From Candidatus Dojkabacteria bacterium (GTDB lineage: Bacteria > Patescibacteriota > Dojkabacteria > J137): DNA of 64,000 nucleotides. The stretch covers positions 433,082 through 497,081 of the forward strand of contig AP024679.1 in assembly GCA_025999215.1 (NCBI GenBank). Direction: 5' to 3'. The translations under genes were made by a program, and so were the position numbers. Positions 2,430 to 56,301 of this stretch are shown here, in pieces; position 1 is the stretch's first letter; each line of letters opens with the position of its first letter. The notes under the pieces were generated by a model. It did not search any database. It saw nothing but the letters and a program-made list of their open reading frames with translations, and was not told where the DNA came from.

Positions 2430-3980
2430 TTACCCTATTTTTAGGTTTTCACTCAAAAAAGATGTTAAGTTTTCATAATCCATTAATCCAACCTCCCTAC
2501 CTTCAAACCTCACAGAAACTGAATTGTTTGTAACCTCTTTGTTACCAATCACAAGTATGACAGGAATTTTTCTTTCTTCAGCATTTCTGATTTTATTTTG
2601 TATACTTTTAGATCTTAAATCTACTTCCACATTATATCCTTGTTTTGCAATTTTTTTACTAAAATTGCTGGCGAATTCATTTTGTTTAGATTTTATTGGT
2701 ATACAAATAATATGAGTTTCTTTAATTGTAGTTGGTAAATTTCCATTGTTTTCTTCGAGTAAGTAAGCAATGATTCTTAGAGGTACCACTTCAATCTCAG
2801 TTACAAAAAGATTTTTATTTTCATTTTTCTCATCTACATAAGTAGGTGTATTTTGTGTGAAAGTTCTTAAGGATGCCAGTTGCCACTTTCTATCAAAAGA
2901 ATCTAGCACAAAAAATACAGTTTCCACGACACCATTAGTTTTGGTAAGCACTTGGTTGTGAGACACAACATTACTTTTCAAAACACTAGAAATGACTTTA
3001 ACTTTACCATCATCTAAATTATCACTTAAAATGTCGGCAGACACATCAATTAGAAGTTTTTTCCTGAATATATCAACAATTTCTTCTATTTGAATTCCCA
3101 ATTCACTCATTCCTTCCGTATCGGTGAACATCGAAATAATTGTTTGTACTAAAGTTTCAATTTTTTCTTTTTTAATTTCAAAAAAATTGGTTGAGTCGTA
3201 ATTAAAAATTAAAGGAAATTCTTTGTAACCATGATTTTTAGATTTGTAATTTTCGAATAGAATTTTTCTAAATTCGTAATTATTTTTTCCTTGAGGAAAG
3301 AGTGTTTGGTTTAAAATGTTATCTTTCAAGCTTCTCAAAAATAATTTTTTGAGACTCTTTATTGAATTTGCACCAAGAGGTGAAAAGTATATTGAGTTTT
3401 CGTATTCAAAAAATAAATTAGATGATAAGCCTATTGTTTTGTAGTTTTTGTTTTTGACAATTTCTAGCTTTTTTTTATAATCTTGTGCCTCATTAAGATT
3501 TCGAAATACCATTCCATAGACTCTTTGCAATTCTGGTCTGTTAGGATCATCTCTCCAAAAAGATTGCTCTACTTTGTTTACTACAATTATCCCAATTTCT
3601 TCAGTTGATGATACATGCGGTCCTCTGCACAAATCTGTAAATTCTTCTCCTAGTTTGTAAAAGCTTACTTCAGGCTCATCAATTTGTTTAACTAATTCTG
3701 CTTTGTAAATCTGGCCGTTTTGAAGTAAAAAATTCAAAGCGCTATCTTTATCGAGTGTTATTTGTGTAAATTTATGATTTTCTTTAATTATTTCGTTAGC
3801 AACTGCTTCAATATTTTTTAAATCTTCTTCTGTAATTTTTTTATCAATATCGATATCGTAATAAAATCCTTCACTGGTTACTGGTCCTATTCCAAATTTT
3901 ACTTCAGGAAAAACTCTTTTTATTGCTGCCGCCATAACGTGAGCCGCAGAGTGTTTGACTGTATCAGAAATTTTGGTCAT
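2430..3980 (-). CDS. Threonyl-tRNA synthetase homologue. It has an N2/editing-type domain, a divergent class-II core and an anticodon-binding domain. There is no TGS domain, and motif 2 and the Zn ligands appear to be missing.
   Basis: HSAAHVMAAAIKRVFPEVKFGIGPVTSEGFYYDID and LCRGPHV match the ThrRS N2 (tRNA_SAD) HxxxH/CxxxH motifs. The C-terminus IPVILVIGNKEV...VSVRFEGREVG matches the ThrRS anticodon-binding domain. The middle 230 aa align to the catalytic core but lack the KPMNCPGH/FGSCHRNE/H511 signatures. The gene occupies the conserved position upstream of infC. Confidence 0.6.
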   Translation of the reverse strand: MTKISDTVKHSAAHVMAAAIKRVFPEVKFGIGPVTSEGFYYDIDIDKKITEEDLKNIEAVANEIIKENHKFTQITLDKDSALNFLLQNGQIYKAELVKQIDEPEVSFYKLGEEFTDLCRGPHVSSTEEIGIIVVNKVEQSFWRDDPNRPELQRVYGMVFRNLNEAQDYKKKLEIVKNKNYKTIGLSSNLFFEYENSIYFSPLGANSIKSLKKLFLRSLKDNILNQTLFPQGKNNYEFRKILFENYKSKNHGYKEFPLIFNYDSTNFFEIKKEKIETLVQTIISMFTDTEGMSELGIQIEEIVDIFRKKLLIDVSADILSDNLDDGKVKVISSVLKSNVVSHNQVLTKTNGVVETVFFVLDSFDRKWQLASLRTFTQNTPTYVDEKNENKNLFVTEIEVVPLRIIAYLLEENNGNLPTTIKETHIICIPIKSKQNEFASNFSKKIAKQGYNVEVDLRSKSIQNKIRNAEERKIPVILVIGNKEVTNNSVSVRFEGREVGLMDYENLTSFLSENLKIG

Positions 3981-4926: not shown

Positions 4927-5463
4927 TCACCATATAAATCTATCACCTATTTTAATTCCATTCTTTTCTGTCCAAAAAGCATTTACTTCAAGTGTGTATT
5001 TTGCCGGTTTTTCTGATGAGTAAATTTCTGTAGTTTGGTTTGGCATGGTGTTAGTGTGAATTTTAACAACTTTTTTATCTGCATCTAAAAATATAATATC
5101 TAGTGGAATATAAGTATTTTTCATCCAAAAGTTTAGAGTTTGTTCTTTTTCAAACACAAAAAGCATGCCAGCATCTTCAGGTAGATAATCTCTAAACATC
5201 AAACCTCGCTGCCTTTCTGTGTTATCATCAGCTATTTCTACAAAAATTTTTTTACCGTTCGGTGCGATTATTTCAATATTTTCTGAAGGTATTGCGTTTA
5301 ATTGAATGTCTTGATTTGCTTCGTTGTTATTTAAAAAGTTTTCACCTACACCTAACGCGATTAAAACAGCAAAAAAAACAGAAATTACTGTAGCAATAGC
5401 GCTAATTAAAAGTATAATCGGAGATTTGAGGTTTTGTAAAATTTTGTTTTTAATATTATTCAT
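4927..5463 (-). CDS. DUF192 (COG1430) family protein with an N-terminal membrane anchor.
   Basis: The GLMFR...GMLFVF...FWMKNTYIPLDIIFLD pattern is typical of DUF192. Confidence 0.65.
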   Translation of the reverse strand: MNNIKNKILQNLKSPIILLISAIATVISVFFAVLIALGVGENFLNNNEANQDIQLNAIPSENIEIIAPNGKKIFVEIADDNTERQRGLMFRDYLPEDAGMLFVFEKEQTLNFWMKNTYIPLDIIFLDADKKVVKIHTNTMPNQTTEIYSSEKPAKYTLEVNAFWTEKNGIKIGDRFIW

Positions 5464-7301
5464 TAAATTATTCGTTTAAAAAATTTATCTATATCTTCTT
5501 TCGTTAGTTTGTAGTAAGTTGGTCGTCCATGTGGGCAATTTTTGGGGTATTTAAGGCTAAACAAATCGTTAATGAGCTTATTCATTTCGTCTATAGATAA
5601 TTTTTGTCCAGCTCTAATTGATCCGTGGCATGCTGTTTTTGCCCAAACTACATACTGTTCTTGTGTTAATTTTACACTAGTTTCAAACTCGTAACTACTA
5701 AATTTTGAATCAAGATCATCTGATTCTTCGTTTATTATCTCATCAAAGAATTCGTTTAAATTTATATTTTCTAAGTCTTCAGGGATTTCCATAATTTGTA
5801 AGGATTTTTGTCCAAATCTTTCAAATTTAAATCCTATCTGAATTAAATCATTTTCAATCTTTTTAATATTATCTTTACCGCTAGTAGTTAACTCGACAAT
5901 TGCGGGAATTAATAGAGGTTTTGATTTAGGTTTTTGAATTTTTCGTAGCAATTTTTCAAAAATGATTTTTTCGTGAGCTGCATGCTGATCAACTATAATT
6001 AAGTTTGAATTTTGTTCAAACAGTATGTATGTTCCAAAAATTTGCATAGGGTTTTTGTTCCATGAAAAGGAAATCTCAACTTCATTTTTGCTACTATTAA
6101 TTCCTTCATCTGATAATAATTGCTGAGTAAATTCAAGTGCTTTTTTGACTTCATAATTTTTGTTTCTTTGGCTTCCGATATTAAATTTAATTTTATTACT
6201 CTGCTCTGTTTTTTGTAAGGGTAAGTAATGCCTTGGTGGATTAGTAGTTTTTAAATCTGGTTCATTTGAAAAGTTATTTTCTTCTCCTAAAAAATCTTTG
6301 AGTAATTCTTGCTTGGACTCTTTCTCAAGTGTTTTTTTGACGCTCAGAAAAACAGACTTGAAAATGGAACCTGGATCATCAAAACGAACTTCAAGCTTTC
6401 GTGGGTGCACATTAACATCAACTTGATTTGAATCAAGTGTTAAAAACAAAATATATTGTGGCTTTAAATCTTTATGCAAGAAACCTGAGTATGCTTTTTG
6501 GATTGCTGATGAAATAGTTTTGTTAGTTACAAATCTTTTGTTGATAAAAATATATTGAACTGGATTTGTTTTTTTTCCAAGTTTTGAATTACCCAAAAAA
6601 CCATTTAATTTGATTGAATTACTGTGAGCAGTTAAGTTATATGAGTTTTCTAAAAATTCTCTACCTAAAATATCTTTTATTCTGTTCTCAATTGAAGTTT
6701 TTTCTAGATTATAAAGTTGTTTATTATTGTGGTAAAGCTCAAAATGTATTTCAGGATTTGCAAGAGATGCATGAATGAAAACTTGGATAATGTGTCTAAG
6801 TTCAGTTTGATTAGATTTTAGAAATTTTTTTCTTGCAGGAACTGTAGCAAATAAATTAAAAACTTGAATTCTTGTGCCGTTATTGTAACCTTCTGGAGAA
6901 GCTTCTGAGATGGTTGTTGGGGTTACCACCACCGCTTTTGGGTTACTATCGGGTGTTTTAGATTGTAAAATAATCTTTTCAGCAACTGAACGAATGCTAG
7001 CCATTGCTTCACCTCTAAAACCAAATGAATTAATTTTAAGTAGGTCAGAAGATTTTTTAATTTTAGAAGTTGCGTGTTGTTCAAACACTAAATCAATATC
7101 ATCACTCTCTATTCCTATTCCATCATCAATAATTTCAATCAAATCTAGCCCATAGTTTTCAATATAAACTTTAATATGAGTTGCATTGGCATCAATGCTA
7201 TTTTCTAAAATTTCCTTAACTACGGACGCTGGTCTTTCAACAACTTCACCGGCAGCAATAAGGTTTATTACATGTGGAGGTAGTTTGTTAATTTTTCCCA
7301 T
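5463..7301 (-). CDS. mutL: DNA mismatch repair protein MutL.
   Basis: The N-terminal GHKL ATPase motifs IAAGEVVERPASVVKEILENSIDA and GTRIQVFNLF are present, with a C-terminal dimerisation domain. The length is 612 aa. Confidence 0.9.
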   Translation of the reverse strand: MGKINKLPPHVINLIAAGEVVERPASVVKEILENSIDANATHIKVYIENYGLDLIEIIDDGIGIESDDIDLVFEQHATSKIKKSSDLLKINSFGFRGEAMASIRSVAEKIILQSKTPDSNPKAVVVTPTTISEASPEGYNNGTRIQVFNLFATVPARKKFLKSNQTELRHIIQVFIHASLANPEIHFELYHNNKQLYNLEKTSIENRIKDILGREFLENSYNLTAHSNSIKLNGFLGNSKLGKKTNPVQYIFINKRFVTNKTISSAIQKAYSGFLHKDLKPQYILFLTLDSNQVDVNVHPRKLEVRFDDPGSIFKSVFLSVKKTLEKESKQELLKDFLGEENNFSNEPDLKTTNPPRHYLPLQKTEQSNKIKFNIGSQRNKNYEVKKALEFTQQLLSDEGINSSKNEVEISFSWNKNPMQIFGTYILFEQNSNLIIVDQHAAHEKIIFEKLLRKIQKPKSKPLLIPAIVELTTSGKDNIKKIENDLIQIGFKFERFGQKSLQIMEIPEDLENINLNEFFDEIINEESDDLDSKFSSYEFETSVKLTQEQYVVWAKTACHGSIRAGQKLSIDEMNKLINDLFSLKYPKNCPHGRPTYYKLTKEDIDKFFKRII

Positions 7302-7328: not shown

Positions 7329-8417
7329 TTATTTAAATTCGCCAAGTAAAAATATTTCTAATTTAAGATTTAATCCTAACTTTTCTAATGCTCTTTTTTT
7401 TATCTCTTCTATCACTGCTAAGTATTCTTGCGCTGTAGCTTTACCTTTGTTTTCAATAAAATTATGGTGTTTTTCTGATATCCAAGCATCACCAATGTGG
7501 AACCCTTTCATATTTAAAACATGTTCTACCACATACCCAACACTTACCGTAGGCCAACCTCTTTTCTCTTTTTCTTTTACGCTTATATTTTGAAAAACAC
7601 AACCTATTGAATTACTTGGTTGATGCAACGCTTTTCTCTTGGTCCACTCTTGAGCTACGTAAATGGCTCTTTTTTTATCACCTTTTCTTAAATTAAAAGT
7701 AGCATCTAAAATTATTTCTTTTGTATCATGAAAAATTGAATAATCATATTTTGCCTTAAGTTCATTTTGTTTATATATCTTAATTTGATTTTTTGAATCC
7801 AGCACCTTTACTTCATCAATTATCTCATGAATAAAATGAGTACCACCATGAATGTTATTAAAAATTGCACCACCGATAGTTCCAGGAATTCTTCCATACC
7901 ATTGTAAACCAGTTAATCCTTGATATACTAAATGATTGATCGCAAATGGTAAATCTACACCACTTTCCATAACTACTTTTACTATAGGTCTGTCATTTTC
8001 ATCGTAATCTAAATCTTGAAATTCATACATTTTCCTTGCGCCCTCTTTTTCTGTTGCGCTATTCCATCTAATTTCAGATTTATATGATTTTTCCCATTGG
8101 TTTATTAAATTTTCATTGTTTTCACTTTTTTCAACTATTTCTTTTTGACCTATAGTAATTTTTTTAGCTTGATTTCGTATAACTAACCCTCTGATTCCTA
8201 AATCACCCACCAAAACATTTGAACCCCAACCAAGCATTGTGATTGGTACGTTTTCTTTTCGAGCGTGAATTATTGCATCTATTAATTCTTCATTAGTTCG
8301 TGGTTCGTAAAAAATATCCGCAGGTCCACCAATTCTTAAAGTTGTATGTTTACTCAATGGTTCATTAAGCTTTATAAATTTTGGGTTTAATTTTGAAATT
8401 AGTTTCTGATATTTCAT
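7329..8417 (-). CDS. murB: UDP-N-acetylenolpyruvoylglucosamine reductase.
   Basis: It carries the FAD-binding N-terminus TTLRIGGPADIFYEP...MLGWGSNVLV and sits directly downstream of murA. Confidence 0.85.
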   Translation of the reverse strand: MKYQKLISKLNPKFIKLNEPLSKHTTLRIGGPADIFYEPRTNEELIDAIIHARKENVPITMLGWGSNVLVGDLGIRGLVIRNQAKKITIGQKEIVEKSENNENLINQWEKSYKSEIRWNSATEKEGARKMYEFQDLDYDENDRPIVKVVMESGVDLPFAINHLVYQGLTGLQWYGRIPGTIGGAIFNNIHGGTHFIHEIIDEVKVLDSKNQIKIYKQNELKAKYDYSIFHDTKEIILDATFNLRKGDKKRAIYVAQEWTKRKALHQPSNSIGCVFQNISVKEKEKRGWPTVSVGYVVEHVLNMKGFHIGDAWISEKHHNFIENKGKATAQEYLAVIEEIKKRALEKLGLNLKLEIFLLGEFK

Positions 8418-8420
8418 AAT

Positions 8421-9707
8421 CTATTTAACTTTTTCTATTTGTGCTCCAAGTGTTAAATAAGTTTCAACTAATTCAGGATAACGTCTGCTCAATTGATCTG
8501 TTTCGTCAATTAAGGTTGAAACGCCACTTGCACCAAGTGCCGCTACAAATAAAGCTTTGGCTGAAGCGATAATATTCGGAGCTTTGATTACTGTACCTTC
8601 TAATTTGCTTGGCCCAAAAGTTATCACTCTGTGAGGATCTGCCATTACAACATTTGCTTTAAGTTTTGCTAGCTCTTCTATGAAGTAAAAGCCGTACTCG
8701 TAAAATGAATTATGAAATATTAAACTTCCCTCTGCAAAACATGCAGCGACTACTAGTGATTGTATAGCATCAGGAGGAAATTGTGGCCAATGTAGCGCCA
8801 TAATTTGAAATAAATCTCCTCTAACAGTTTTGTGAGCTTTTAATTTTTGATTTTTAGGAATTATAAGTTTATCTCCTTCGTAGTAAGAGTTAAGATTTAT
8901 TTTTTCAAAGGCAGATCTAATATTTGTCATGTGTTCTGGAATTGCGTTATTTATAGTGAGCTCGCTTCCAGTGACAGCAGCTATTGCCATATATTCTGCG
9001 ATATCTAAATGATCACTTATCACATTCCACTCTGTTCCCTTAAGTTTATCTACACCATTTATCACTAATTTGTTAGAGCCAATGCCTTTAATTTTAGCTC
9101 CCATGCTAACCAACATGTTACATAAATCTTGAGTGTGAGGTTCACAAGCAGCATTGTAAATTTCTGTAACTCCAGGCGTTAGTACAGCCAAATTAATTAA
9201 ATTTTCTGTTCCTGTAACACTTGGAAACCAAGACCAAACTTTTGCGCCTTTTAATTTTTTTGCCTCTAAAAAATAACCTTTTTCTCTTCTGTAAACAGCA
9301 CCAAGTTGCACCATATTATCAATAAAAGCATCCAGTGGCCTTGAACCTAATTTACACCCCCCCGGTATAGGCATTTCAGCTTTTCCAAATCGATGAAGAA
9401 GTGGCGCCATAAACATTACAGAAGCCTTTGCTTTTTGGGATAAATCCTCATCGATTTTATAAGTATTAATACCTTTAGCTACTATTTTCACAGATGTTCC
9501 ATTGTTAAAATACGTAACCTTACCGCCGAGAGTTTTTACAATTTTAAGCATTATTCTTACATCAGAACTTTTAGGAACATTGTGTATGATTACTGGTTCA
9601 TCAGTCAATAAACTAGCTGGAATTAATTTTAAAATTGAATTTTTATTTGGAACTGGAGTAACCTCACCATTTAGTTCTATGCCTCCTTGAATTTTATATA
9701 CAGCCAT
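8421..9707 (-). CDS. murA: UDP-N-acetylglucosamine 1-carboxyvinyltransferase.
   Basis: The sequence MAVYKIQGGIELNGEVTPVPNKNSILKLIPASLL is the EPSP-synthase fold N-terminus. The length is 428 aa. Confidence 0.9.
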   Translation of the reverse strand: MAVYKIQGGIELNGEVTPVPNKNSILKLIPASLLTDEPVIIHNVPKSSDVRIMLKIVKTLGGKVTYFNNGTSVKIVAKGINTYKIDEDLSQKAKASVMFMAPLLHRFGKAEMPIPGGCKLGSRPLDAFIDNMVQLGAVYRREKGYFLEAKKLKGAKVWSWFPSVTGTENLINLAVLTPGVTEIYNAACEPHTQDLCNMLVSMGAKIKGIGSNKLVINGVDKLKGTEWNVISDHLDIAEYMAIAAVTGSELTINNAIPEHMTNIRSAFEKINLNSYYEGDKLIIPKNQKLKAHKTVRGDLFQIMALHWPQFPPDAIQSLVVAACFAEGSLIFHNSFYEYGFYFIEELAKLKANVVMADPHRVITFGPSKLEGTVIKAPNIIASAKALFVAALGASGVSTLIDETDQLSRRYPELVETYLTLGAQIEKVK

Positions 9708-9912
9708 TGATTAAATTTAAAATATTTTAATAATTATACCTTAAAATTAAAAATTACTCTAAAATTTCGAAAGGGGTAGTTAGATAATAACGTTAAAGTA
9801 TTTAGTATTCTAAAATTAAGAAAACCATTTTGCAGTTTTGGCTTTCTATGAGGATAACCAGGCCAGCAGCAAGGTCTATTTGCGCTTGTTGATTTTTTTT
9901 CTAAAATCAATA
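9688..9912. repeat. Copy A of a roughly 225 bp direct repeat. It spans the murA promoter/leader plus the first codons of murA.
   Basis: It is near-identical to 12190-12414 (over 95% in the promoter-proximal 130 bp and about 75% distally). It contains a TATAAT about 30 nt upstream of the murA ATG. Confidence 0.75.
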
Positions 9913-10088
9913 AAAGATACAAAAATACACTCATCTTGTTTGGATGATTTTCACTTCCATGTAAGAGGTTTTATAAATATAGTTTAAATTATCTTTTTTC
10001 TGTATACTTTCCAGATTGTATTGTTCAGTAGATAGTATTTCAAACTTAAATTTCCATAATTGTCATTTTCTAACTTCTGTCAATAAGT

Positions 10089-12113
10089 TTAATCAGGAAC
10101 TTTTTGTAGTAAAAATTCTCTACAGTAAATCCTGGGTGGTTTAGACCAATCTATTTCACCATCAGGTTTGCGCTCATGTAAAATAAAACATCCATATCCA
10201 TATTGCCTTAACCCTATTCTACTGATCACGATCACATTATTTTTTAATTTTAATAGTTCTTTAACATATTTGTGATGCTTACGGGTTGCGTACATATTTT
10301 CATATATTCCATACTTTATACCAAAGTTACATGTGTACACACTAACATGTTTGCCATCCTCACATGCTTTGACATTTAGAATGGGTTCAACTGGTACATA
10401 CTTGAATCCTGCCCTTTTCCAATTATCTACTGCTTGATATACTCTTAACCAAGAAATAAATTCTTCATTTGATATGACTCTTCTATTACTTTTGTTGTCT
10501 AGCTCTTCAGTAATAATTGGGGGCTTTTTCTCTGCTTTTGATATTTCTTTTATTTCTGATTTTTCAAGGTTTTCTATTAGTTTTAATACATCTTTTTCGA
10601 TTGGTTTTCTATTTTTTTCTGGCAGATACTCAAAATTCCAAGCAAACCCAGGCGCAGCTTCTTTTGGTGCCATATCAATAAGTAGTCTAGCTACCTGTAA
10701 TTGATTCCCTTCATGTAAAGATGGGAGTCTAAAAGCGACCTCGTAAGCGGTTCCTTTTGGGTTTACACCCATAAGTAACTTAATGACTGCTAATTGATTT
10801 TTTTCTGACAAGTCCCGAAGTTGCCAAGCCACATTGCGAAGAAATTCGTCATTAATTGCTTTGGGAGCTTTTTCTATAAGTGAAGTAATAATTTCTATTT
10901 GAGTATCTTCTGGTAAACATGCTAAATGGCCAGCGAGGTTCTCAGCAGACTCTTGAGGTGCTTTTTCAACAAGTAGTTTAGCAATATCTCCCCTAATATC
11001 TTCAGATATATCATCAATTTTGTCAGATAACGGGCCTGCCGTTGGATTTATATATTCATCCTTATGTAACATGTACAAAATTTCATTTTTGATTTCTTGG
11101 GGTAATTCTTCAAATTCGCAAATTTCCCGAGCAAGTTCAGGTGCCGCTTCTTTTGGTGCTATATCGAGCAGTAAATTAAAGATATGTATCATTTGCTTTT
11201 CAGAAATAAACTCGCCGACATAAAAAAGTTTTTTAGCAAGTTCAGGTGCAGCTTCTTTTGGTGCTTTCTCTAGAATTAATTTTAATATTTCCATTTGAGC
11301 TTTTTCTGGTAAATATATGGCCTGATTTGCAAGCCCTGGTGCAGCTTCTTTAGGAGCTTTTTCTATAAGCTTTTTTGCGAAGTCTGCTCTAACTTCTTCT
11401 GGAAGGTCATTAATACCCCAGGCAAGTTTAGGTGCAGCTTCTTTTGGTGCTATATCGAGAAGCTTGTTTGCAAAGTCTACTCTTGTTTCTTTTGGAAGAT
11501 AAGAAACACTCCAGGCAATTTCAGGTACCGCTTTTTTGAGGGCTACATCAAACAGTAAATTAACAATTTGTTTTCTATTTTCGTATGGAAAAGATTCTAT
11601 GGAGCTAGCGATTACTGGAGCCGCTTCTTTGGGGGCATTCTCTAGGAACCAAGGTAATGCTTCTCTTTTAACCTCTGATGGGAGGTACTTAAAATTTTCA
11701 TATTCAGCTATTGCAGAAGTCACTTTTTTTAAATTTTTCTCCTTTATATGTTTTAAGAGCATTTTACAGATTTTTGTAAAAACTGCTGGTTCAAGAAGGC
11801 GATACAAATCTGAAATAAAGTTAGCAAGTTTAACCCCAGCTTCCTCTGGAGCGATATCTAAAATCTCTTGGGTTTTTTCGAAATAATCTCCTTGTTGACT
11901 ACATAGTGATAACATCGCATCAGTTATTTTAAAGTTTATTGGATCATTTTCGATAATGTTCTGGTATTGCCTTTCTAAATTTTCAACTATTTTTTGAAAC
12001 TCATCCTGGGACCATTTAGGTGCACCTGGCAAATGATACATTTCATAGTTTGCTATCATGTTGCGTGCCGTTTCACTTAAACTTGAATTAATTGAGGAAG
12101 TATTTTGTGACAT
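10089..12113 (-). CDS. Repeat protein of 674 aa. It has about ten roughly 30-aa 'L(L)DIAPKEAAPxLA...LPEE' HEAT-like repeats and a roughly 140-aa C-terminal domain of unknown function.
   Basis: The long ORF is intact. The nucleotide-level periodic repeat (gcagcttcttttggtgc recurring about every 90-100 bp) translates to APKEAAP. The C-terminal region ...YGCFILHERKPDGEIDWSKPP... has no recognised motif. Confidence 0.65.
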   Translation of the reverse strand: MSQNTSSINSSLSETARNMIANYEMYHLPGAPKWSQDEFQKIVENLERQYQNIIENDPINFKITDAMLSLCSQQGDYFEKTQEILDIAPEEAGVKLANFISDLYRLLEPAVFTKICKMLLKHIKEKNLKKVTSAIAEYENFKYLPSEVKREALPWFLENAPKEAAPVIASSIESFPYENRKQIVNLLFDVALKKAVPEIAWSVSYLPKETRVDFANKLLDIAPKEAAPKLAWGINDLPEEVRADFAKKLIEKAPKEAAPGLANQAIYLPEKAQMEILKLILEKAPKEAAPELAKKLFYVGEFISEKQMIHIFNLLLDIAPKEAAPELAREICEFEELPQEIKNEILYMLHKDEYINPTAGPLSDKIDDISEDIRGDIAKLLVEKAPQESAENLAGHLACLPEDTQIEIITSLIEKAPKAINDEFLRNVAWQLRDLSEKNQLAVIKLLMGVNPKGTAYEVAFRLPSLHEGNQLQVARLLIDMAPKEAAPGFAWNFEYLPEKNRKPIEKDVLKLIENLEKSEIKEISKAEKKPPIITEELDNKSNRRVISNEEFISWLRVYQAVDNWKRAGFKYVPVEPILNVKACEDGKHVSVYTCNFGIKYGIYENMYATRKHHKYVKELLKLKNNVIVISRIGLRQYGYGCFILHERKPDGEIDWSKPPRIYCREFLLQKVPD

Positions 12114-12148
12114 ATTTTGATAAAGATAAAATAAAAATTTTGGTTATT

Positions 12149-12205
12149 CTACAACATACTCAATGCATCTAACTCTACGCCTCCTTTAATTTTGTATACA
12201 GCAAT
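12149..12205 (-). pseudogene. Remnant of the murA 5' end (about 18 codons, no start codon).
   Basis: It translates to IAVYKIKGGVELDALSML*, matching the murA N-terminus MAVYKIQGGIELNGEV. It lies at the inner edge of repeat copy B, directly upstream of the 674-aa gene. Confidence 0.6.
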
Positions 12206-12414
12206 TGATTAAATTTAAAATATTTTAATAATTATACCTTAAAATTTAAAATTACTCTAAAATTTTGAAAGGGGTAGTTAGATAATAACGTTAAAGTATT
12301 TAGTATTCTAAAATTAAGAAAACCTTTTTTTCATTTTGGATTTCTGTGAGAACAACTAGGCCAGCAATAAGATGTTTTTGCACCTGTAGATATTTCTTTT
12401 TCTAAAAGGTTTAA
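12190..12414. repeat. Copy B of the roughly 225 bp promoter/leader direct repeat.
   Basis: See copy A. Here it now drives the 674-aa repeat-protein gene. Confidence 0.75.
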
Positions 12415-12708
12415 ACGTTTATTTCTAGTAGTTCCTTTTTAGCAGCGCTTAACCAACATATCCATTCATTGCGAGCTAATTGTGTGAGTTTACCCCAGAC
12501 ATCATTTTAAATAGTATTTTTTGAGCATATTATCAAGATCAAGCGGCACTGCATGAAAATAGTTTTGTATACTTTTATAATTTTTATTCATTATTTTTTA
12601 ATTAGGGAAGTTCTAATAATTTAAGAAGCGGTTTTTATTTTTTGGAAAAATACAATTACCTGAAAAGATATCTAAAAAAAGCAAATAAAAAAAACTAATT
12701 TTTAATCT

Positions 12709-12784
12709 TGGTGCCGAGGGGCGGACTCGAACCGCCGACACCACGATTTTCAGTCGTGTGCTCTACCAACTGAGCTACCTCAGC
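12709..12784 (-). tRNA. tRNA-Phe (anticodon GAA). CCA is encoded.
   Basis: Acceptor GCTGAGG/CCTCGGC, anticodon stem CACGA/TCGTG with loop CTGAAAA, and T arm GGCGG-TTCGAGT-CCGCC. Confidence 0.85.
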
Positions 12785-12908
12785 ACTACGCTTGATTATA
12801 CACCGTTTTTTTCAACTTTGCGAATTTTTTTTTGTTTGTATTAAAAATTGTTTAGAATTATAGTAATTTTTTTTAAAGTGTTGTACAATTAATTAGTTTA
12901 CATTTTAA

Positions 12909-13739
12909 TTGAAATTTATGGAAGAATCAAAAACTACTTCAAACCAAGATATGAAGACTGAAAAAGTTAAATCAAATGGAAAAAGTAAGGTCTGGTTGAT
13001 TGCAGGTTTGTTATTTGTGATTTTTTTATGTTGTTGTTTGTGTGTGGGAGTTTTGGGTTATATGTTGTTTCAATCTGAAGATTTTAAAGAGGGATATTGT
13101 GAATCACTAGAAGAGGATGATGCATTGGATAATGATTTGTTAGGTTTGTGTGATGATTGGGAACCATCTTACGAAAAAGAAGATACCAAGGTTAGTTCAA
13201 ATGACAGCGATAAAAAAGCTGACGTTGTAGACAACAATACAGACACTAAAAAAGATGAATCTAACGACAAGAAGCAAAATAATGATAGTGCTTATGTTAT
13301 TTATGATGGTTATTACTTTTCATTCGAATATCCAAGATATTGGAAACAAAGCACATCTTCTACAGATTGGTCAACAGTTGAGTTTACATCTGAAGAAGGA
13401 GTTGTAATTAGTTTAAAATCAATTTATGATAATGAGTATTCAAAGAATTTGTCAGGTTGTAGTGAATATGAAGAGTCAATTTTTAGTGGTTTGACTAGTG
13501 TGTATGATAATGTTGAGTCTGAATCTGTTTTATTTACAACTACGGAGAATGGATATGCCGCTTGTTATTTAAAAGGTTATCTTGTTGATGGACCTATTAC
13601 TACAGTTTTAGAGCAATATTTAGTATTTGATCCTTTGATTGATACTTTTGCTTTAGAATTTGGAATTAAATACGATTCTAGAGATTCTGGCATGGGTAGT
13701 TACTTGCAACATGCTGTTGATACATTAACGTTTGAATAA
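12909..13739 (+). CDS. Hypothetical N-terminally membrane-anchored, Cys-rich, acidic protein.
   Basis: It has a single TM segment (LIAGLLFVIFLCCCLCVGVLGYMLF) followed by a D/E/S-rich extracytoplasmic region. The start is probably the ATG at about 12918. Confidence 0.5.
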   Translation: MKFMEESKTTSNQDMKTEKVKSNGKSKVWLIAGLLFVIFLCCCLCVGVLGYMLFQSEDFKEGYCESLEEDDALDNDLLGLCDDWEPSYEKEDTKVSSNDSDKKADVVDNNTDTKKDESNDKKQNNDSAYVIYDGYYFSFEYPRYWKQSTSSTDWSTVEFTSEEGVVISLKSIYDNEYSKNLSGCSEYEESIFSGLTSVYDNVESESVLFTTTENGYAACYLKGYLVDGPITTVLEQYLVFDPLIDTFALEFGIKYDSRDSGMGSYLQHAVDTLTFE

Positions 13740-13818
13740 ATTTTAAAAAGCAAGAAATATAACTGAACCTAACATATTGATTTAATTTAAAAGTGTTGTT
13801 ACAATTTGTTGTTTGCTT

Positions 13819-14019: not shown

Positions 14020-14690
14020 GTGAGTAATGAAAAAATTAAACAAAAGGCAAAAAAGGTTAATGCGTTGTTAAAAAAAGAATACCCTATAGTTAAAACTCCT
14101 TTGCACCACAAAAATGCCTGGGAACTTTTAATTGCAGTTATATTGTCAGCTCAAACTTTAGATGAAACGGTAAACAAAGTTACTCCAAGGCTTTTTAAGT
14201 TATACAATTCATGTTATGAATTAGCTGGGGCTAATTTGGCTGAAGTAGAAGAAGTTATAAAAGGCGTAAATTATTATAAAACCAAAGCCAAAAATATTAT
14301 CAAGACATCTCAAAAGCTAGTAGAAAATTTTGATGGTAAAGTACCAAATAAAATTGAAGAATTAACAACTCTTCCTGGTGTTGGTAGAAAAACTGCCAAT
14401 GTTATAATAAACGAGTGGTTTTGTAGGCATGATCAGAAAGTTTTACCTCAGGGATTTGTTGTTGATACTCATGTAGCTAGGGTTTCAAAGCGTTTAGGTT
14501 TTACTAAGCATTCTGATCCTACTTAAAATTGAGCAAGATTTAATGAATTTGTTTGATCAGATCTGATTGGCCTGAGTTGAGTTTGAGATTGATTTTTCAC
14601 GGGAGATATAGGTGTACCGCTCGTCAACATTTATGTTGTGAGCATGATAGATTGGAGTAAACTTTGTCAATGTTTATGTTAACATTATGG
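14020..14690 (+). pseudogene. nth: Endonuclease III (Nth) with three or more frameshifts in the C-terminal [4Fe-4S] region.
   Basis: Frame 1 gives the HhH-GPD core through LPGVGRKTANVIIN...VDTHVARVS. The downstream KIEQDLMNLFDQI, DWPELSLRLIFHGRYRCTARQHLCCEHD and KLCQCLC pieces continue the Nth C-terminus in three other frames. Confidence 0.6.
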
Positions 14691-15963
14691 AATTTAATTT
14701 AGTTTCTGAGTATAAACCTGCTGGTGATCAACCACGAGCGATTGATACGCTTTCTAATGGTTTGCTTGCTGGGAATCAAGCACCAAACGCTTGGTTGGTG
14801 CGACCGGAACTGGTAAAACTTTTACAATGGCAAATATCATACAAAATCTTGGGAAACCTGCTTTAATTCTTTCTCACAACAAAACTTTAGCTGCTCAATT
14901 GTTTGCTGAATTTAAAAAATTTTTTCCTTACAATGCTGTTGAGTATTTTGTGAGTTACTACGATTATTATCAGCCTGAGGCTTATGTTCCCTCAAGAGAT
15001 TTGTATATTGAGAAAGATGCCGATATAAACGACACAATTGAGCGGTACAGGTCTTCAGCTAGCCAGTCGCTTTTGACAAGAAAGGATGTGATTGTAATTT
15101 CAACCGTTAGTTGTATCTATGGGCTAGGGAATCCTGCAGATTATTTAGAATTAAGTTTTGAATTTAATGTTGGGGAAAGTTATAAACGCGATAATATTTT
15201 AGCGCGACTAACAGATATGCAGTATGAAAGAAACCAACTTGATTTCATGCCTGGGAGTTTTAGAGCCATTGGTGAGATTATTGATATTTATTTAACAAAT
15301 GCAAATGATGAAGCTGTAAGGTTAGAGTTTTTTGGTGATGAATTGGAATCTATAAAGATAATTAATCCTCTAACAGGCGAGTTTGTAAAAAATTTAAATT
15401 CAGTTATTATTTTTCCTGCCAAACACTATGTAAGTCCACATCATAAACTAATGGAAACGATTGAAACAATAAGAGAAGATATGAAAAAAGAAGTTCAGCA
15501 ATTTTTGGATAAAGGAAAGGTGGTGGAAGCAACGAGACTTAAGCAAAGGGTTGAATATGATTTGGAAATGATTGCTGAAACAGGTTTTGTAAAAGGCATT
15601 GAAAATTATTCTAGATACATTGACAGAAGACCACCCGGAAGTGCGCCATCATGTTTAATTGATTATTTTCCTCATGATTACATTATGTTTATTGATGAAT
15701 CACATATAACTGTTCCGCAAATTGGAGGAATGTACAATGGCGATCGCGCACGGAAACAGAGCTTGGTAGATTATGGTTTTAGGATGAAAGCAGCGCTAGA
15801 TAATCGACCTTTGAAATTTGAAGAATTTGAACAAAAATTAAACCAAGTTATTTACACCACGGCAACGCCAAGGGATTATGAAATTCAGAAAAGCATGAAT
15901 GCAACAGAAGAAATTAGGGAAAAAAGCCCTCAAATATTCAGTGGAAAAATGTTAGAATATTAG
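14687..15963 (+). CDS. uvrB: Excinuclease ABC subunit B, N-terminal roughly 415-residue portion only. There is a -1 frameshift near 14775-14795 and a premature end at 15963.
   Basis: MEFNLVSEYKPAGDQPRAIDTLSNGLLAGN (frame 2) continues as LVGATGTGKTFTMANII...YFVSYYDYYQPEAYVP...FIDESHITVPQIGGMYNGDRARKQSLVDYGFRMKAALDNRPLKFEEF...YTTATPRDYEIQKS (frame 1), which is canonical UvrB. After EIQKS the frame diverges and stops. Confidence 0.85.
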
Positions 15964-15999
15964 AATGAAAATCAAGATTAGAAATATTTCACAAAAGGA

Positions 16000-16808
16000 A
16001 TGGTGATGGGTCTTGCTGAGGTTATCCCTGGAGTGAGTGGGTCAACCATGGCTTTGGTGATGGGTATTTATGATGATTTCATCAATCTACTCTACTCTTT
16101 TTCAAAGTTGGCGCAAAATTGTGTTGAGTTTTTGTTTCGAAAGAAAAGATTTTTTTGATCTTAAACAAGAGTTGACTGAACTATCTAGAATGGGGTTTTG
16201 CTATACCTTTGTTTTTCGGCATGATTGTGTCAATTTTATCTTTTGCCAATATTTTAAACTATTTCATTGATAAATCACCGGGTTACGTGCTTGCTTTTTT
16301 CTTTGGATTGGTGGTCGCATCGGTGTCAATTCCACTTCAGAGAGTTGGTAAGACCCAACATTTTGAAAGTTCTTTTGTTCTTGCTTCTCTCTTGCTTTTT
16401 TCTATTTTTTGCTTGGAGTTGATCCTATTGAGTTAAACGGTAAGCCAAATTTAGTTTATGTATTTTGTTGGGGGTATGCTTGCCATTTGCGCAATGAGTT
16501 TGCCTGGAATTAGCGGTTCTTTTATTTTGCTATTGTTGGGTTTGTATGAATACATTATTTCTATAATTAAAGATTTGTCTCATTTTAAGTTTAACTTCAG
16601 TGATTTTACTAGGTTGGTTGTTCTTTCTTTTGGTGTGGTGGCTGGATTTGTATTGTTTGTGAGAATACTAAAATGGTTGCTTTCAAAATACGAGGGCGAA
16701 TTGATGGCTTTTCTTGCAGGCTTGATGTTGGCATCGCTAAGAATTTTGTGGCCATTTATCGATAATTCACAGGAAGTTTCGAGAGTTTGGATGCTTATCC
16801 CAAGGTGA
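16000..16808 (+). pseudogene. DUF368 (COG2035) membrane protein gene with three or more frameshifts.
   Basis: The pieces VIPGVSGSTMALVMGIY..., FFGMIVSILSFANILNYFIDKSPGYVLAFFFGLVVAS and LPGISGSFILLLLGLYEYI are successive parts of one DUF368 protein, spread across three frames. Confidence 0.6.
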
Positions 16809-16914
16809 TGTTAGAGTTAAGTAACACTGAACACCTTGTACACGGTTGCAATTATTGTAGCAAGTGCTGTAGCCGTCTTAGTAATCAAAAAGATTTCTGA
16901 TAAAATTTAAGAGG

Positions 16915-18834
16915 TCACACCAAGGAAGCTTTGAGTCGCCTCAGGTTTGAGCCTATGTTTTCTTGTTTTAAAATTTTGAACTTTTTATTATTCTCTCCCA
17001 AAACTCCTGTTGTTTCAACATGCGGTCCTCCGCAAAACTCTTTTGAGAAACGCCTCATCTAAACTATTACCTATAAAATAAATGGTTACTTTGTCGGGAT
17101 ATTTTTGTCCAAACTCCATTTCTGCACCAATTTTTTGTGCTTCGCCTGAGAGGCATTTCTACTCTCTTCACTGGTAAATTTTCTGTGATCTTTTGATTGA
17201 CAATATCTTCAATTTTTTTGATTTCCTCTTCTGTAATTTTTTTTGAATAGTTAAAATCTATTCTTAATCTTTCAGAAGTTATGTTGCTACCTCTCTGGTG
17301 AATATTTTCGTCTAACACAAGCTGTAATGCTCTCAAAAGCAAGTGGTGAGCTGTGTGAAGCTTGGTTGTTTCGTGCGAGTGATCTGCCAAGCCTCCAGTA
17401 AATTTTTTTTGAGCGCCGGCACGAGATTGTTCTTTATGTTGTTCTAGCAACGTTTTAAAACCAACTATGTCTACTATAAATCCTATTTCTTTTGATAATT
17501 CTTGTGTCATTTCTACTGGAAATCCATAAGTTTCATAAAGATGGAAAGCTTCTTCACCTTTTAAGAAATTTCTATGAGGATTTTCGGATTTTTTGATATC
17601 AGTAACGATTTTGTAAAATTGCTTAATACCATTGTCTAGAGTTTTTCTAAATTTTATTTCTTCTTTATCTATTTCATCAATTATAAACATCTCCTTTTCT
17701 TTAAGATGAGGATAAGCATCTTTCATTTTTTCAATTACTAGGCTTGCCAAATCCTTGGTGAAATTTTTTTCTATTCCAAGAATTTTTGCATGTCTTATCA
17801 TCCTTCTGATTAAGCGCCTCAAAATATACCCTTGATCTTTGTTAGATGGCGCAATTCCATCGGCAAGAATAAAAGTTGATGCTCTTGCATGATCAGCTAT
17901 AATCCTGAATGCTTTCGTATATTTACTTCTGTTCTTCGTTGTGATCGTATTTGTGGCCTGATATATTTTCTATTGCGTTGATGTAGTCAATAAATAAATC
18001 AGTTTCGTAAACTGAGCGCTTGTTTTGAACTGTAGCGACAATTCTGTCTAGCCCTCCTCCATAATCAATGTTTTTTTGCTCCATAGGCTTCCATTTTCCA
18101 TCCTCAAATCTGTATTCCATAAAGACACTGTTTCCAATTTCTAAGTATCTTCCTGAATCATCATTAATGTGCAGTTTTTCTCCAGTATCATTTAATACTG
18201 TTTGCATATCATAAAAAATTTCTGAGCACGGTCCACCCAATTCTCCATTAACCTCGGGCCCTCTCTGCCACCAATTGTCTTTTTTACCATAAGGAAATAT
18301 TCTAAATTGCCAATTTTGACTTGATTCACCCTGTTGAGGAACATTTGTAATATCTTCACTAAATTTCGCTTCTATTCCATATTTTTTAAATGCCTTTATC
18401 CATGCGTCAATGGCTTCATCATCGCGAGGTATATTATCATCTCCTCCCCAGACGCTAGCAAAAATTCTTTGGGGATCAAGTCCGAACTTTTCTACATAAA
18501 GCTCCATTTTCCAAAGTATTTGTTCAGTTTTTGAAAAAGCGCCCAAAGACCAGTTACCGATCATTTCAAAAAAAGTTAAGTGATTGTAGTCGCCAACATC
18601 TTCAATATCATTTGTTCTTAGACATCTTTGTACATTACACAATCTTTTTCCCAAAGGATGAGGCTGTCCAGCTAGATATGGCACAAGTGGAAACATGCCT
18701 GAATTTACAAAAAGTAAAGTTGGATCATTATTTGGGACAAGGGATACATTCGGGATAATTTTTGCATTTCTTGGAGAACTTGTCCAAAATTTCAAAAATT
18801 CATTTCTTATTTCATCGGATGTTTTCATGAACAA
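16915..18834 (-). pseudogene. alaS: Alanyl-tRNA synthetase (catalytic, tRNA-recognition and editing regions) with three or more frameshifts. It ends without a C-Ala domain.
   Basis: The N-terminal core is LVPNNDPTLLFVNSGM...QRCLRTNDIEDVG...HLTFFEMIGNWS. Frame breaks occur at about 17920 (…EEQK* then KAFRIIADHARAS…), about 17148 (MPL then EAQKIGAEMEFGQKYPDKV) and about 17070 (…then FSKEFCGGPHVETTGVL…RRLKASLV*). Confidence 0.75.
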
Positions 18835-29886: not shown

Positions 29887-31074
29887 ATGGCTAATTCGTT
29901 ATATAAAACAACAGCAAATGCTAGAAAAATTTTGTTTGCTTTTTTAGTATTTTCTTTGCTAATTGTTGTTAATGATTTTTACCAAAGTTTGTCAAAAACT
30001 CAAACAGATTTTGGTTTGAATTCTCAAAGAAGGTTTTATATGTCTACTAAGTTTTTTGATTTTTTAGATGATATTCCACCAGTTCCTGATATTCCAGGTA
30101 TTCCTCGTGATACAAATGATTCTCTAACTTATTCTGTTGAAGGAGTTTTTTCCGAATTTCCTGATATTTCTTATGTTTATACAATTGAAGAGCCAGCTGA
30201 AAAACTTCTCACATTTCAAAATGCACAAAATATTGCAAGTGAGCTTGGATTTAACTCAGAAAATTTTTCTGAAAGTGGCCAGTCTCAGGTTGTGTGGTCT
30301 AAAGATAATGGCGCTACAACTTTAACATTCGATAGGGTTTTACAGACATGGAATATGAAAACCGATTTGACAAACAATCCTCGATTTAATCCTGTTCAAA
30401 AAATTGTACAAAATCGTTTGAATAATTTATCTCTCACTTTGCTTAGTCGTATTAGGTTAAATGGAGGGAAGGGTTTTAATAATGGTTTATCTGAAAATAT
30501 TTTTTTAAAAAGGGAGGCAAATGGTGATTTGGTTGAAGTTACAGATTCAAATCAAGCACAGCTTATATTGTCAAATGCTTATAGAATACTACCTTTGGCT
30601 GATCTGAAACCACAGAGCGAACAGCCGGAACTATTACCTGGTGAAGTAAGACCTCGACCAGTTTCGGCAAAGGTTTATACTTCTGATCCTTTTCGTGGTT
30701 CTGCAAATTTTTTAACCAAGGGAAGTGAACCTGAAGATGACATTTACGAATTTTCTTTCATTAATTGGGAGTATGGTGTTGATGTAGGAGCTTATCCAAT
30801 TATCACTCCACAAGAAGCGTGGAATAATGTTCAGCAAGGTCAGGGAAGTTTGGTGTTTATAAGGCAACAAGGAGATAGTAGAATTGGTGGAAGAGATCCT
30901 TTAAATGTGAGAAGGTATGTTTTAGAAGCAGACAAAACAGAAATAGCTTTTTATGAACCTAGTGAGTGGAATGGTTTTGTTACTCCAGTTTATATATTTA
31001 GAGGAAGAGCTGAACTAGAGAACGGAAGGCAAGCAAGTTTTATATTTTATATTGATGCTCTTAAAAGATTATGA
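29887..31074 (+). CDS. Hypothetical N-anchored secreted protein (395 aa). It is the first gene of a four-gene plus-strand cluster with overlapping start/stop codons.
   Basis: It has an N-terminal TM segment (ILFAFLVFSLLIVVNDF). Its stop overlaps the next start (ATGA). Confidence 0.5.
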   Translation: MANSLYKTTANARKILFAFLVFSLLIVVNDFYQSLSKTQTDFGLNSQRRFYMSTKFFDFLDDIPPVPDIPGIPRDTNDSLTYSVEGVFSEFPDISYVYTIEEPAEKLLTFQNAQNIASELGFNSENFSESGQSQVVWSKDNGATTLTFDRVLQTWNMKTDLTNNPRFNPVQKIVQNRLNNLSLTLLSRIRLNGGKGFNNGLSENIFLKREANGDLVEVTDSNQAQLILSNAYRILPLADLKPQSEQPELLPGEVRPRPVSAKVYTSDPFRGSANFLTKGSEPEDDIYEFSFINWEYGVDVGAYPIITPQEAWNNVQQGQGSLVFIRQQGDSRIGGRDPLNVRRYVLEADKTEIAFYEPSEWNGFVTPVYIFRGRAELENGRQASFIFYIDALKRL

Positions 31075-32270: not shown

Positions 32271-32282
32271 TGTTATAGTATT

Positions 32283-33497: not shown

Positions 33498-33498
33498 T

Positions 33499-55647: not shown

Positions 55648-56301
55648 TTAATTTTCCGGCTGAGCAGATAATTCACATAACGTTTCAACTAACGTATCTG
55701 TAAAGGTTTTATTATTTGCTAATTCTGCTAGTTTTGGTAATTTAGAGAGTTGTTGTTCTAAAAAAGTTTTATCTAAATTATATACATTTTGAAGCTCAGT
55801 AATGCCAGTTAAAACTTTTAAAATAGTTTCTGATACAACATTTTTTGAAGATGAACCAGTAGTGCTAGTTAAAACTTCTAAAATAAATTTTGATAAATCA
55901 TCTGAAGATGAACCAGAGTTAATATTATCTTTCTATTTTATAATTTTATGATGCAATATAGATAATCTTAGGATTATTGGTTGCATTATGTTAGCTAAAG
56001 CTTGTTGAGGATTTTCCTGAAGTATTAGTGAATTTAAAGTATTTGTCTCTGAAGGTTTTGTCTCTAAAGACATAATATGAATAATATAACTTAAAAGTAT
56101 GTCTAAAAATGCATTAAATACTTCATCACCAACATTTAGTTTTAGTTTTTTTTCTTCTAACTTTTTTCTTAATGCTTCTTTTAAATTCTCTCTGTTCTCT
56201 GAACTTAATTTTGTTTGAAAAACATTTAGAATTTTCGTTAACTGAGCTATTGTTAGTGATTCTCCTGTTGTGTCCTGTTTGATTGTTTCTGCCATAAACA
56301 T
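55648..56301 (-). CDS. Hypothetical protein interrupted by an in-frame TAG at about 55930. The upstream 122 aa and a downstream roughly 93-aa continuation lie in the same frame. The C-terminal part contains a tandem roughly 19-aa repeat.
   Basis: The translation reads ...HHKIIK-TAG-KDNINSGSSSDDLSKFILEVLTSTTGSSSKNVVSETILKVLTGITELQ... in one frame. The DNA carries a tandem imperfect roughly 57 bp repeat at 55810-55925. Confidence 0.4.

Follow-up and report, generated by a model that had tools for sequence, protein, structure and literature searches.

A 64-kb stretch from the genome of a Candidatus Dojkabacteria bacterium (contig AP024679.1), referred to as the window, was analysed upstream of murA, where an intact gene for a protein of 674 amino acids (aa) lies between two copies of a directly repeated segment of about 240 bp. 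The duplicated unit is composed of the 3' end of the gene omdA (its last ~25 codons), the complete intergenic spacer of 124 nt and the first ~13 codons of murA. As a whole, the arrangement is best explained by a lineage-specific duplicative insertion, after which both genes lay behind the same upstream region, and by gene conversion since then; we regard this explanation as likely. All genes in the repeat region are encoded on the minus strand, and its parts are as follows.

8421-9707, minus strand: murA, UDP-N-acetylglucosamine 1-carboxyvinyltransferase, 428 aa, intact, Pfam EPSP_synthase
9668-9906, minus strand: repeat copy A, made up of murA codons 1-13 (9668-9707), the core (9708-9831) and an omdA 3' remnant (9832-9906; to 9913 by tblastn)
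9708-9831, minus strand: core A, the complete omdA-murA spacer and presumed murA promoter region, with TATAAT at 9733-9738, 25 nt before the murA ATG
9832-9913, minus strand: omdA 3' remnant of copy A (…LEKKSTSANRPCCWPGYPHRKPK), stop codon lost, the frame running into the core
9914-10088, minus strand: unique spacer 3' of the 674-aa gene, 175 nt, part of the inserted segment and inside Logan contig L001
10089-12113, minus strand: 674-aa gene (KatS3mg085_430), intact open reading frame (ORF) with an N-terminal region, HEAT-like repeats and a C-terminal kinase-like domain
12114-12148, minus strand: unique spacer of 35 nt from the stop of the murA remnant to the ATG of the 674-aa gene, read from the sequence
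12149-12205, minus strand: murA 5' remnant, ATT for ATG, 18 codons, then TAG; alignable to murA codons 1-13 only
12166-12407, minus strand: repeat copy B, made up of part of the murA remnant (12166-12205), the core (12206-12329) and the omdA 3' end (12331-12407)
12206-12329, minus strand: core B, with TATAAT at 12231-12236, 25 nt before the ATT at the start position of the murA remnant
12331-12591, minus strand: omdA (OmdA/YdeI family), ~87 codons, full length with two frame changes, stop codon 12331-12333
12709-12784, minus strand: tRNA-Phe(GAA), found with ARAGORN, outside the repeat and a conserved upstream anchor

A repeat search of the window paired 9668-9900 with 12166-12398 (233 nt, 88%). 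Gapped local alignment widened the repeat to 9668-9906 in copy A and 12166-12407 in copy B, with 88.1% identity over 243 columns. The self-comparison of the 9.6-12.5 kb region that the earlier note had recommended was run as blastn of the window against itself and recovered the duplication as well (235 nt, 88.9%, E 4.6e-77). The direct duplication of ~225 bp, which that note had placed at 9688-9912 and 12190-12414, is therefore real; its coordinates were about 20 nt short on the murA side and otherwise right. The copies differ in 29 of the 243 columns, and the unique flanks differ on all four sides. Stretches of 58, 18 and 43 nt still match exactly and would serve as a substrate for gene conversion. 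The 58-nt block, exact in both copies, has no further occurrence in the 64 kb (chance expectation 0). The core pattern occurs twice within the 64 kb and had no match in the metagenome contigs searched, and the repeat search of the window gave no terminal inverted repeats around the insert or the core. The core was rejected as a mobile or multi-copy element on these grounds.

In the direction of transcription, the order of the locus is tRNA-Phe, omdA (full length, with two frame breaks), spacer, murA remnant, 674-aa gene, omdA remnant, spacer and murA. The truncations are complementary: copy B joins the whole omdA to a dead murA start, and copy A joins a dead omdA tail to the whole murA. The murA product is full-length, matches EPSP_synthase (PF00275) over residues 7-415 (E 1.3e-58) and is 100% identical to a protein annotated as MurA in a Dojkabacteria metagenome-assembled genome (MAG) at NCBI. 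Its remnant in copy B (12205-12149, 57 nt) starts with ATT GCT GTA and is translated as IAVYKIKGGVELDALSML before the stop. It had been described as a start-less copy of the first 18 murA codons, and it is indeed a start-less remnant of 18 codons closed by TAG; its alignment to murA extends over only ~13 of them. The 674-aa ORF starts 35 nt after this stop, at 12113, as had been stated and as was read directly from the sequence.

The gene omdA was reconstructed from three-frame translations, with frame changes at ~12500 and ~12425, both within short A-runs. The reconstructed 87-aa product matches the Pfam family OmdA (PF13376) with 38.6 bits vs a cut-off of 25.6 (E 1e-9) and aligns without gaps to the intact 85-aa protein P0124 (43% identical), with the C-terminal motif …CCWPGCSHRN inside the alignment. 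Having no intact frame, omdA is an apparent pseudogene. In a tblastn search, residues 61-87 of the reconstructed protein hit 9913-9836 (E 0.004). This omdA remnant of copy A covers only the last ~25 codons and ends …RPCCWPGYPHRKPK; its C-terminal motif matches that of P0124, whose C-terminus reads …GKRRPCCWPGCSHRNK. The stop codon of the remnant is lost, which gives rise to a spurious 66-aa ORF (9734-9934). Both this ORF and one of 27 aa (12300-12383) were rejected as real genes, being by-products of the omdA remnant which are not conserved as ORFs between the copies. The repeated unit had been taken for a promoter and leader of murA; this does not hold for its distal third, which is an OmdA-family coding remnant according to Pfam, tblastn and the alignment to P0124.

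Both the 674-aa protein and MurA are identical to proteins of a Candidatus Dojkabacteria MAG at NCBI, where the 674-aa gene has the locus name KatS3mg085_430 on a contig of 862,240 bp. The nearest relatives of its MurA are 86%, 80%, 78% and 74% identical. The closest of them lies on a metagenome contig from JGI (L035), which is collinear gene-for-gene with positions 1-23.5 kb of the window (21 kb), two spacers excepted. From tRNA-Phe to murA, L035 has 119 nt and no intervening gene vs 3001 nt in the window, and from tRNA-Val(TAC) to tRNA-Phe it has 117 nt vs 1034 nt; the tRNA-Phe sequences are identical at 76/76 positions. Neither omdA nor the 674-aa gene nor a second junction copy was found near murA at any of 37 loci (33 genome loci and the 4 closest metagenome or Logan loci), and the collections searched yielded no second genome with two copies of the junction. 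The synteny check supports the insertion proposed in the earlier note: L035 has tRNA-Phe, 119 nt and murA, and the 674-aa gene is absent from 37/37 murA loci of relatives. A two-copy arrangement with a full-length second murA, which had been named as the observation that would speak for a decayed paralogue, was seen at 0/37 loci. The genes following murA are in the same context, murA-murB-mutL, in L035.

7329-8417, minus strand: murB, directly after murA, same order in relatives
5463-7301, minus strand: mutL, after murB, same order in relatives

Two comparisons bear on the age of the parts. Both murA and its remnant carry GTA (codon 3), ATT (codon 6) and GGC (codon 9), unlike the four relatives, and since these codons are common to both 5' copies and not seen in the relatives, the duplication arose within this lineage and is no import from a distant source. 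The 119-nt spacer of L035 aligns almost end to end with the 124-nt core, with a score of 55 vs 37.8 +/- 5.3 for shuffled sequences (~1% of which reach it), whereas no alignment was obtained with the 117 nt following tRNA-Phe in the window. The core is accordingly the old upstream region of murA, and omdA, together with a leader of its own, separates this ancestral region from tRNA-Phe. The spacer is ~60% identical to that of L035, with many gaps, vs 79% for murA at nucleotide level and 52% at its third codon positions; in three other relatives no similarity to the spacer was detectable.

The following course of events would account for these data. The ancestral order would have been tRNA-Phe, omdA, 124-nt spacer and murA. 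A segment of ~2.26 kb with a single gene, encoding the 674-aa protein with HEAT repeats and a kinase-like domain, would have been inserted at the omdA-murA junction, duplicating ~240 bp of the target, namely omdA codons ~62-87, the whole spacer and murA codons 1-13. The upstream copy would thereby have been joined to the full omdA and would end in the dead murA start; the downstream copy would lead from the dead omdA tail into functional murA. Afterwards, the coding remnants would have drifted to ~80% identity and the spacers would have been held at 97.6%. As to the route, we tentatively prefer that a circular intermediate, itself equipped with a copy of the junction, was integrated by a single homologous crossover (Campbell-type). 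Replication could also have switched templates in one step, moving to a foreign template and returning upstream of where it had left; this would give the same product and is possible, though we hold it rather unlikely. Other routes share the probability that remains.

Identity is unevenly distributed along the repeat. Cores A and B match at 121/124 positions (97.6%), the murA codons at 33/40 and the omdA part at 60/75 with four indels; core vs flanks (121/124 vs 93/115, or 97.6% vs ~81%) gives p = 2.4e-5 in a Fisher test. The near-identical proximal part with its TATAAT, which the earlier note had pointed out, corresponds to these 124 nt, and the TATAAT is placed 25 nt from the ATG. All three differences between the cores are outside the TATAAT box. 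The coding remnants on both sides of the core, which are non-functional in at least one copy, have drifted to ~80% identity. Thus, a proximal part more conserved than the distal part is only half of the pattern: the unevenness is significant, and both flanks have diverged, not the distal one alone. The identity of the cores within the genome exceeds what orthologous divergence would give, and the pattern is mosaic, as in concerted evolution. Gene conversion is most likely the cause of the near-identity, with a contribution from purifying selection on two promoters; what speaks for conversion is the rapid change of the orthologous spacer from one species to another (~60% identity in L035). Gene conversion and selection on a leader had both been suggested before, and the sequence comparison favours the former. 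Leader selection is unsupported, as the putative leader has ~18 nt, the conserved block is mostly upstream of the -10 box, and neither a fold nor an Rfam family was found. Folding of the cores, of the leader of copy B and of the opposite strand gave no significant structure (z -0.2, +0.5 and +1.6), and neither repeat copy had an Rfam match even at E up to 10. A structured leader or riboswitch in the repeat was rejected for these reasons and because no conservation of this sequence is seen before murA in relatives.

Each spacer copy would act as the same promoter of the TATAAT type. Copy A would serve murA through a leader of ~18 nt without a Shine-Dalgarno sequence, and copy B would serve the 674-aa gene through a leader of ~110 nt, which includes the 57-nt dead murA stub and the 35-nt spacer. 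The 674-aa gene would be driven by the duplicated murA promoter. Terminator-like sites were not found on the minus strand between the 674-aa gene and murA (9914-10088), so that read-through is possible, and transcripts from copy B may add to the transcription of murA. Throughout the window, the ATG of many ORFs is preceded at 7-12 nt by a TATAAT-like box, and only 3/41 of the ORFs of at least 200 aa have a Shine-Dalgarno-like 4-mer between -20 and -5. This suggests that mRNAs in this genome are widely leaderless or have very short leaders.

Other origins of the arrangement were weighed against the lineage-specific duplicative insertion. An assembly artefact, i.e., a duplicated or mis-joined segment or collapsed strain variants, might be suspected in a metagenome-assembled genome whose neighbourhood at 14.0-18.9 kb has ~7 frame disruptions in conserved genes including alaS, which indicates that the local consensus may be poor. 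The copies, however, differ in the 29 columns given above, and their unique flanks are distinct on all four sides. Furthermore, Logan contig L001 (2437 nt), from a separate k-mer assembly of run DRR290133, equals window positions 9797-12233 at 100%; both inner junctions lie within it, and its two ends fall in the identical cores, where a graph of k=31 must break. This run probably belongs to the same project as the genome and represents a second assembler, not a second sample. The Katase hot-spring study used PacBio HiFi reads with an N50 of 10.5 kb and metaFlye assembly (PMC9671151); if the genome comes from this study, to which only the locus-tag name links it, single reads cover the structure of 2.7 kb from end to end. 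The assembly duplication feared in the earlier note was thus examined and, with L001 identical over its length and the copies diverged, an artefact is highly improbable. Some bacteria carry two murA genes, and the stub might be all that is left of another murA, a paralogue preceded by an omdA-like gene of its own, which decayed and was overwritten. One Dojkabacteria MAG did give two murA-bearing contigs (L007 and L011). Here, however, the murA similarity ends after ~13 codons and is followed by an unrelated intact ORF, tblastn detected no more than one MurA-like region in the window, the lineage-specific codons of the resident murA recur in the stub, which is therefore a recent copy, and the omdA remnant is truncated in mirror image, as expected of a duplicated junction. 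L035 has no second copy at the locus and a tandem pair of full-length murA genes was not found in relatives; we give such a paralogue hardly any credence. A third source could be a site-specific integrative element (tRNA island or prophage-like), of which the insert would be a remnant and whose attachment site would have carried a replacement omdA-murA junction. The locus adjoins tRNA-Phe and tRNA-Val, both tRNA-flanking spacers contain lineage-specific DNA (3.0 and 1.0 kb vs 119 and 117 nt in L035), and imperfect direct repeats with an identical centre resemble attL and attR. Against this, the tRNA sequence is outside the repeat, the 674-aa gene has a native composition and no phage, plasmid or viral relatives, and 9.7-12.7 kb contains no integrase, excisionase or other mobile-element gene, its only ORF being without Pfam match. 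This origin is improbable. A scan of ORFs and Pfam matches over 9.7-12.8 kb likewise gave no transposase, integrase, excisionase or other mobile-element gene, and the sole ORF in the insert is the 674-aa gene. The target-site duplication of a transposon or insertion sequence was rejected: exact duplications of ~2-14 bp would be expected, and that of ~240 bp found here is 88% identical and has neither terminal inverted repeats nor a transposase, in agreement with the former statement that it is too long. Finally, the two cores might be working parts of a minimal excisable cassette, with recombination between them freeing the 674-aa gene as a circle of ~2.5 kb with a hybrid junction. The k=31 assembly graph, with a unitig ending inside both cores, is compatible with an integrated or a circular topology, and we see a slim chance for such a cassette. 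If it were true, excision would restore omdA-spacer-murA, the circle would re-integrate by the same homology and the presence of the gene would vary in the population; it would be a gene cassette which moves by carrying a copy of the promoter of an essential gene of its host.

Two further alternatives accept the duplication and concern what has happened since. Purifying selection alone could have kept the 124-nt spacers nearly identical, acting on a densely packed functional element that both copies need, such as a promoter with upstream binding sites or an unrecognised small RNA or leader. The near-identical block ends within a few nt of the omdA stop and the murA start codons, TATAAT is spared by all three differences, and both promoters should matter, since murA is a conserved cell-wall gene presumably needing a promoter and the 674-aa ORF has been kept open. 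On the other hand, most spacer positions are free to change, given ~60% identity with gaps in L035 and no similarity in three other relatives; neither strand has a significant fold (z -0.2 to +0.5) and Rfam has no match; and with flanks ~20% diverged, 3 differences in 124 nt would demand constraint at nearly every position. Selection as the only cause is for this reason judged unlikely. Alternatively, the 674-aa gene may be transcribed from signals of its own at the junction, and copy B would be a mere scar kept similar by gene conversion. A TAGAAT box at 12146-12151 straddles the stop codon of the murA remnant 32 nt before the ATG of the 674-aa gene, weak -10-like boxes are found nearer to this ATG, and, as many genes here have a -10-like box 7-12 nt before the ATG, a leader of ~110 nt is atypical. 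However, -10-like hexamers are ubiquitous in this A+T-rich DNA, and the TATAAT of copy B was perfectly kept while the adjoining remnants decayed. Transcription from such a junction promoter is a possibility we take seriously, although we doubt it. Besides the TAGAAT box, several points weigh against the lineage-specific insertion with a shared promoter region and subsequent gene conversion. A consensus promoter scan gave 19 sites vs 13.6 +/- 3.5 expected, barely above background in DNA of 68% A+T; the TATAAT site is not listed among them owing to its poor -35 box. The edges of the near-identical block, being the omdA stop and the murA start, fit selection better than random conversion tracts. 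The frame breaks in omdA could be consensus errors and not decay, as many breaks are present in an adjoining stretch of 5 kb. MurA relatives of >90% identity were not found in the protein, genome and metagenome collections searched; with no close relative there, the ancestral arrangement omdA-spacer-murA was never seen directly. Concerning polarity, omdA was either gained in this genome or lost in L035. The circular intermediate of the Campbell-type route is hypothetical.

Several known systems resemble the duplicative insertion proposed here. In Campbell-type integration of suicide plasmids and episomes, the insert also lies between direct repeats of the homology segment, with complementary truncations and intact target genes, and recombination between the repeats would pop the insert out. 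The present case differs in that there are no vector or replicon functions, the repeats are 12% diverged and the identity is mosaic. Phage 21 and e14 in the icd gene of E. coli are inserted by an integrase as a whole prophage and duplicate the 3' gene end only. As in our case, a diverged substitute gene end keeps the host gene working, and what it displaced persists as an imperfect direct repeat (100-200 bp); in contrast to them, no integrase is present here, only one gene was inserted, and the repeat runs from a 3' gene end across an intergenic promoter region into a 5' gene end. An evolutionary unit of the form "3' ORF - intergenic - 5' ORF" was described for the tandem paralogue cluster lpl of S. 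aureus (Tsuru and Kobayashi 2008, PMC2568036). There, as here, what is duplicated or recombined is not a whole ORF but a stretch that runs from the last part of one gene across the spacer into the beginning of its neighbour. The lpl unit, however, is shuffled among tandem paralogues via a conserved central ORF region, whereas unrelated genes (omdA and murA) flank the spacer at this locus and a foreign gene lies between the copies. Documented relatives of such events are homology-facilitated illegitimate recombination (PMC5361080) and transformation-generated merodiploids (PMC3784515). Both are RecA-dependent, trap non-homologous DNA beside a homologous anchor and can leave orphaned gene ends or duplications. 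Homology-facilitated events typically replace or delete recipient DNA, whereas 240 bp were duplicated here, and the pneumococcal merodiploids are tandem duplications of 100-900 kb between pre-existing repeats, unlike this case.

The inserted gene encodes about nine HEAT-like repeats of 31 aa ('APKEAAP'), with a spacing of 93 nt. The 674-aa protein has no match in Pfam or NCBIfam. A word-based search gave two homologues at 34-36% identity; an exhaustive HMMER search gave 264 cluster representatives of the family, and a metagenome scan gave 98 confirmed loci (family set: loci L041-L120, proteins P0122-P0273). The homologues mostly share only the C-terminal ~150 residues, which stand behind variable HEAT/ARM-like arrays and an N-terminal 'MYxxPG' motif; one family member matches HEAT_2 with E 2.8e-21. 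A first structure model with three sequences as input was unusable (pLDDT 40.6). The C-terminal domain has a protein-kinase-like fold.

10092-10640, minus strand: C-terminal domain of ~150 aa of the 674-aa protein, minimal protein-kinase-like fold

The family consensus has the motifs GSxTTLxGG, HGHxHxxNF and IDFD. The 674-aa protein agrees with the family at 24/43 conserved positions. It is without the GSxTTLxGG segment, and the other two motifs are replaced by Q/Y/gap/C and REFL; when compared to the consensus HGHxHxxNF … IDFD, its catalytic-loop and metal-binding residues are not present. By its residues, it looks like a pseudokinase or a decaying family member. The closest folds to its C-terminal domain are the minimal kinase-like proteins Bud32, RIO1/2 and archaeal Ark1, and pseudokinases. 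The domain differs from these kinases in being fused to HEAT-like repeats and in having no sequence-level match to any kinase model of Pfam or NCBIfam, and, unlike them, the 674-aa protein has neither the glycine-rich loop segment nor the His, Asn and Asp that are otherwise conserved. In a simulation of an ORF of 2 kb, the probability of no stop codon was <= 0.001 once neutral substitution was at least 5%, and the adjoining remnants are ~18-20% diverged. As the 2 kb frame is open despite this divergence, the 674-aa gene is under selection, if it arrived with the duplication; presumably, it is also expressed. Its GC content of 35.1% and GC3 of 24.0% are native to the genome (32.0 +/- 3.1 and 22.5 +/- 3.5), and relatives were not found in phage, plasmid and viral-contig collections. 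An origin of the gene from a mobile element was rejected on both counts.

Repeats are also present at two other loci of the family. On L119, an intergenic element of ~180 nt occurs twice (2732-2925 and 6494-6690) with perfect terminal inverted repeats of 12 bp (TTACGAAACTCC … GGAGTTTCGTAA), similar to a miniature inverted-repeat transposable element (MITE). Each copy ends just before an ATG, and the copies enclose a gene of 369 aa, tRNA-Gln and a kinase-like family member. On L041, 139 nt are repeated at 98% (1142-1280 and 2899-3037), which comprise the upstream region of a gene closely homologous to the 674-aa gene, together with its first 50 nt; the second copy lies 62 nt after the stop of this homologue, at the contig end, and the repeat probably marks tandem paralogues. 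A shared mode of insertion in the gene family was rejected, as the L119 repeat is a MITE-like element and that of L041 the start of a tandem paralogue, neither of which matches this case.

Further observations were made elsewhere in the window. Between tRNA-Phe and tRNA-Val(TAC) (12785-13818), an ORF of 276 aa is located on the plus strand (12909-13739), with only a weak hint of a LITAF-like zinc ribbon. This segment is a second lineage-specific insertion, in the adjacent spacer, and the tRNA pair looks like a hot spot. At 14035-18828, four conserved genes (a HhH-GPD glycosylase, a UvrB-like helicase, a VCA0040-like protein and alanyl-tRNA synthetase) need 1-3 frame changes each when compared to their intact L035 orthologues, which makes ~7 breaks in 5 kb. 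Not all breaks are in homopolymers, and outside this stretch the window is clean. Errors in the local consensus, a collapse of strains or genuine decay could each explain them; look-ups of a second assembly gave nothing for these genes. On the plus strand, a direct repeat of 281 nt with 93% identity (31991-32271 vs 33218-33498) forms the 3' ends of the adjacent genes 31071-32270 and 32283-33497. The products have a C-terminal part of 115 aa in common (90% identical, type IV secretion pilin-like, PF18895), and their N-terminal parts of ~285 aa are unrelated. This repeat looks like module sharing or gene conversion between neighbours, and, as it joins otherwise unrelated genes, partial duplication or conversion occurs in this genome. 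A short tandem repeat with a period of ~62 nt and ~80% identity is located at 55790-55919.

Events of this kind are known, and the locus adds one more: a duplicative insertion in which the promoter region was doubled, with concerted evolution afterwards. It is a real but fairly ordinary rearrangement, and none of these results overturns current understanding. The annotation can be corrected in that the 66-aa ORF is spurious, omdA, so far unannotated, is an apparent pseudogene and a stub of murA is present; in addition, an undescribed protein family is flagged, which combines an N-terminal motif, HEAT-like repeats and a minimal kinase-like domain and has no model in Pfam or NCBIfam. For the organism, the locus provides a dated example of how a reduced genome of the candidate phyla radiation (CPR) gains a gene without disturbing an essential neighbour: as the junction was duplicated, murA retains its upstream region and the 674-aa gene receives a copy. 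It also suggests that short dispersed repeats are under concerted evolution even in a genome of ~0.86 Mb.

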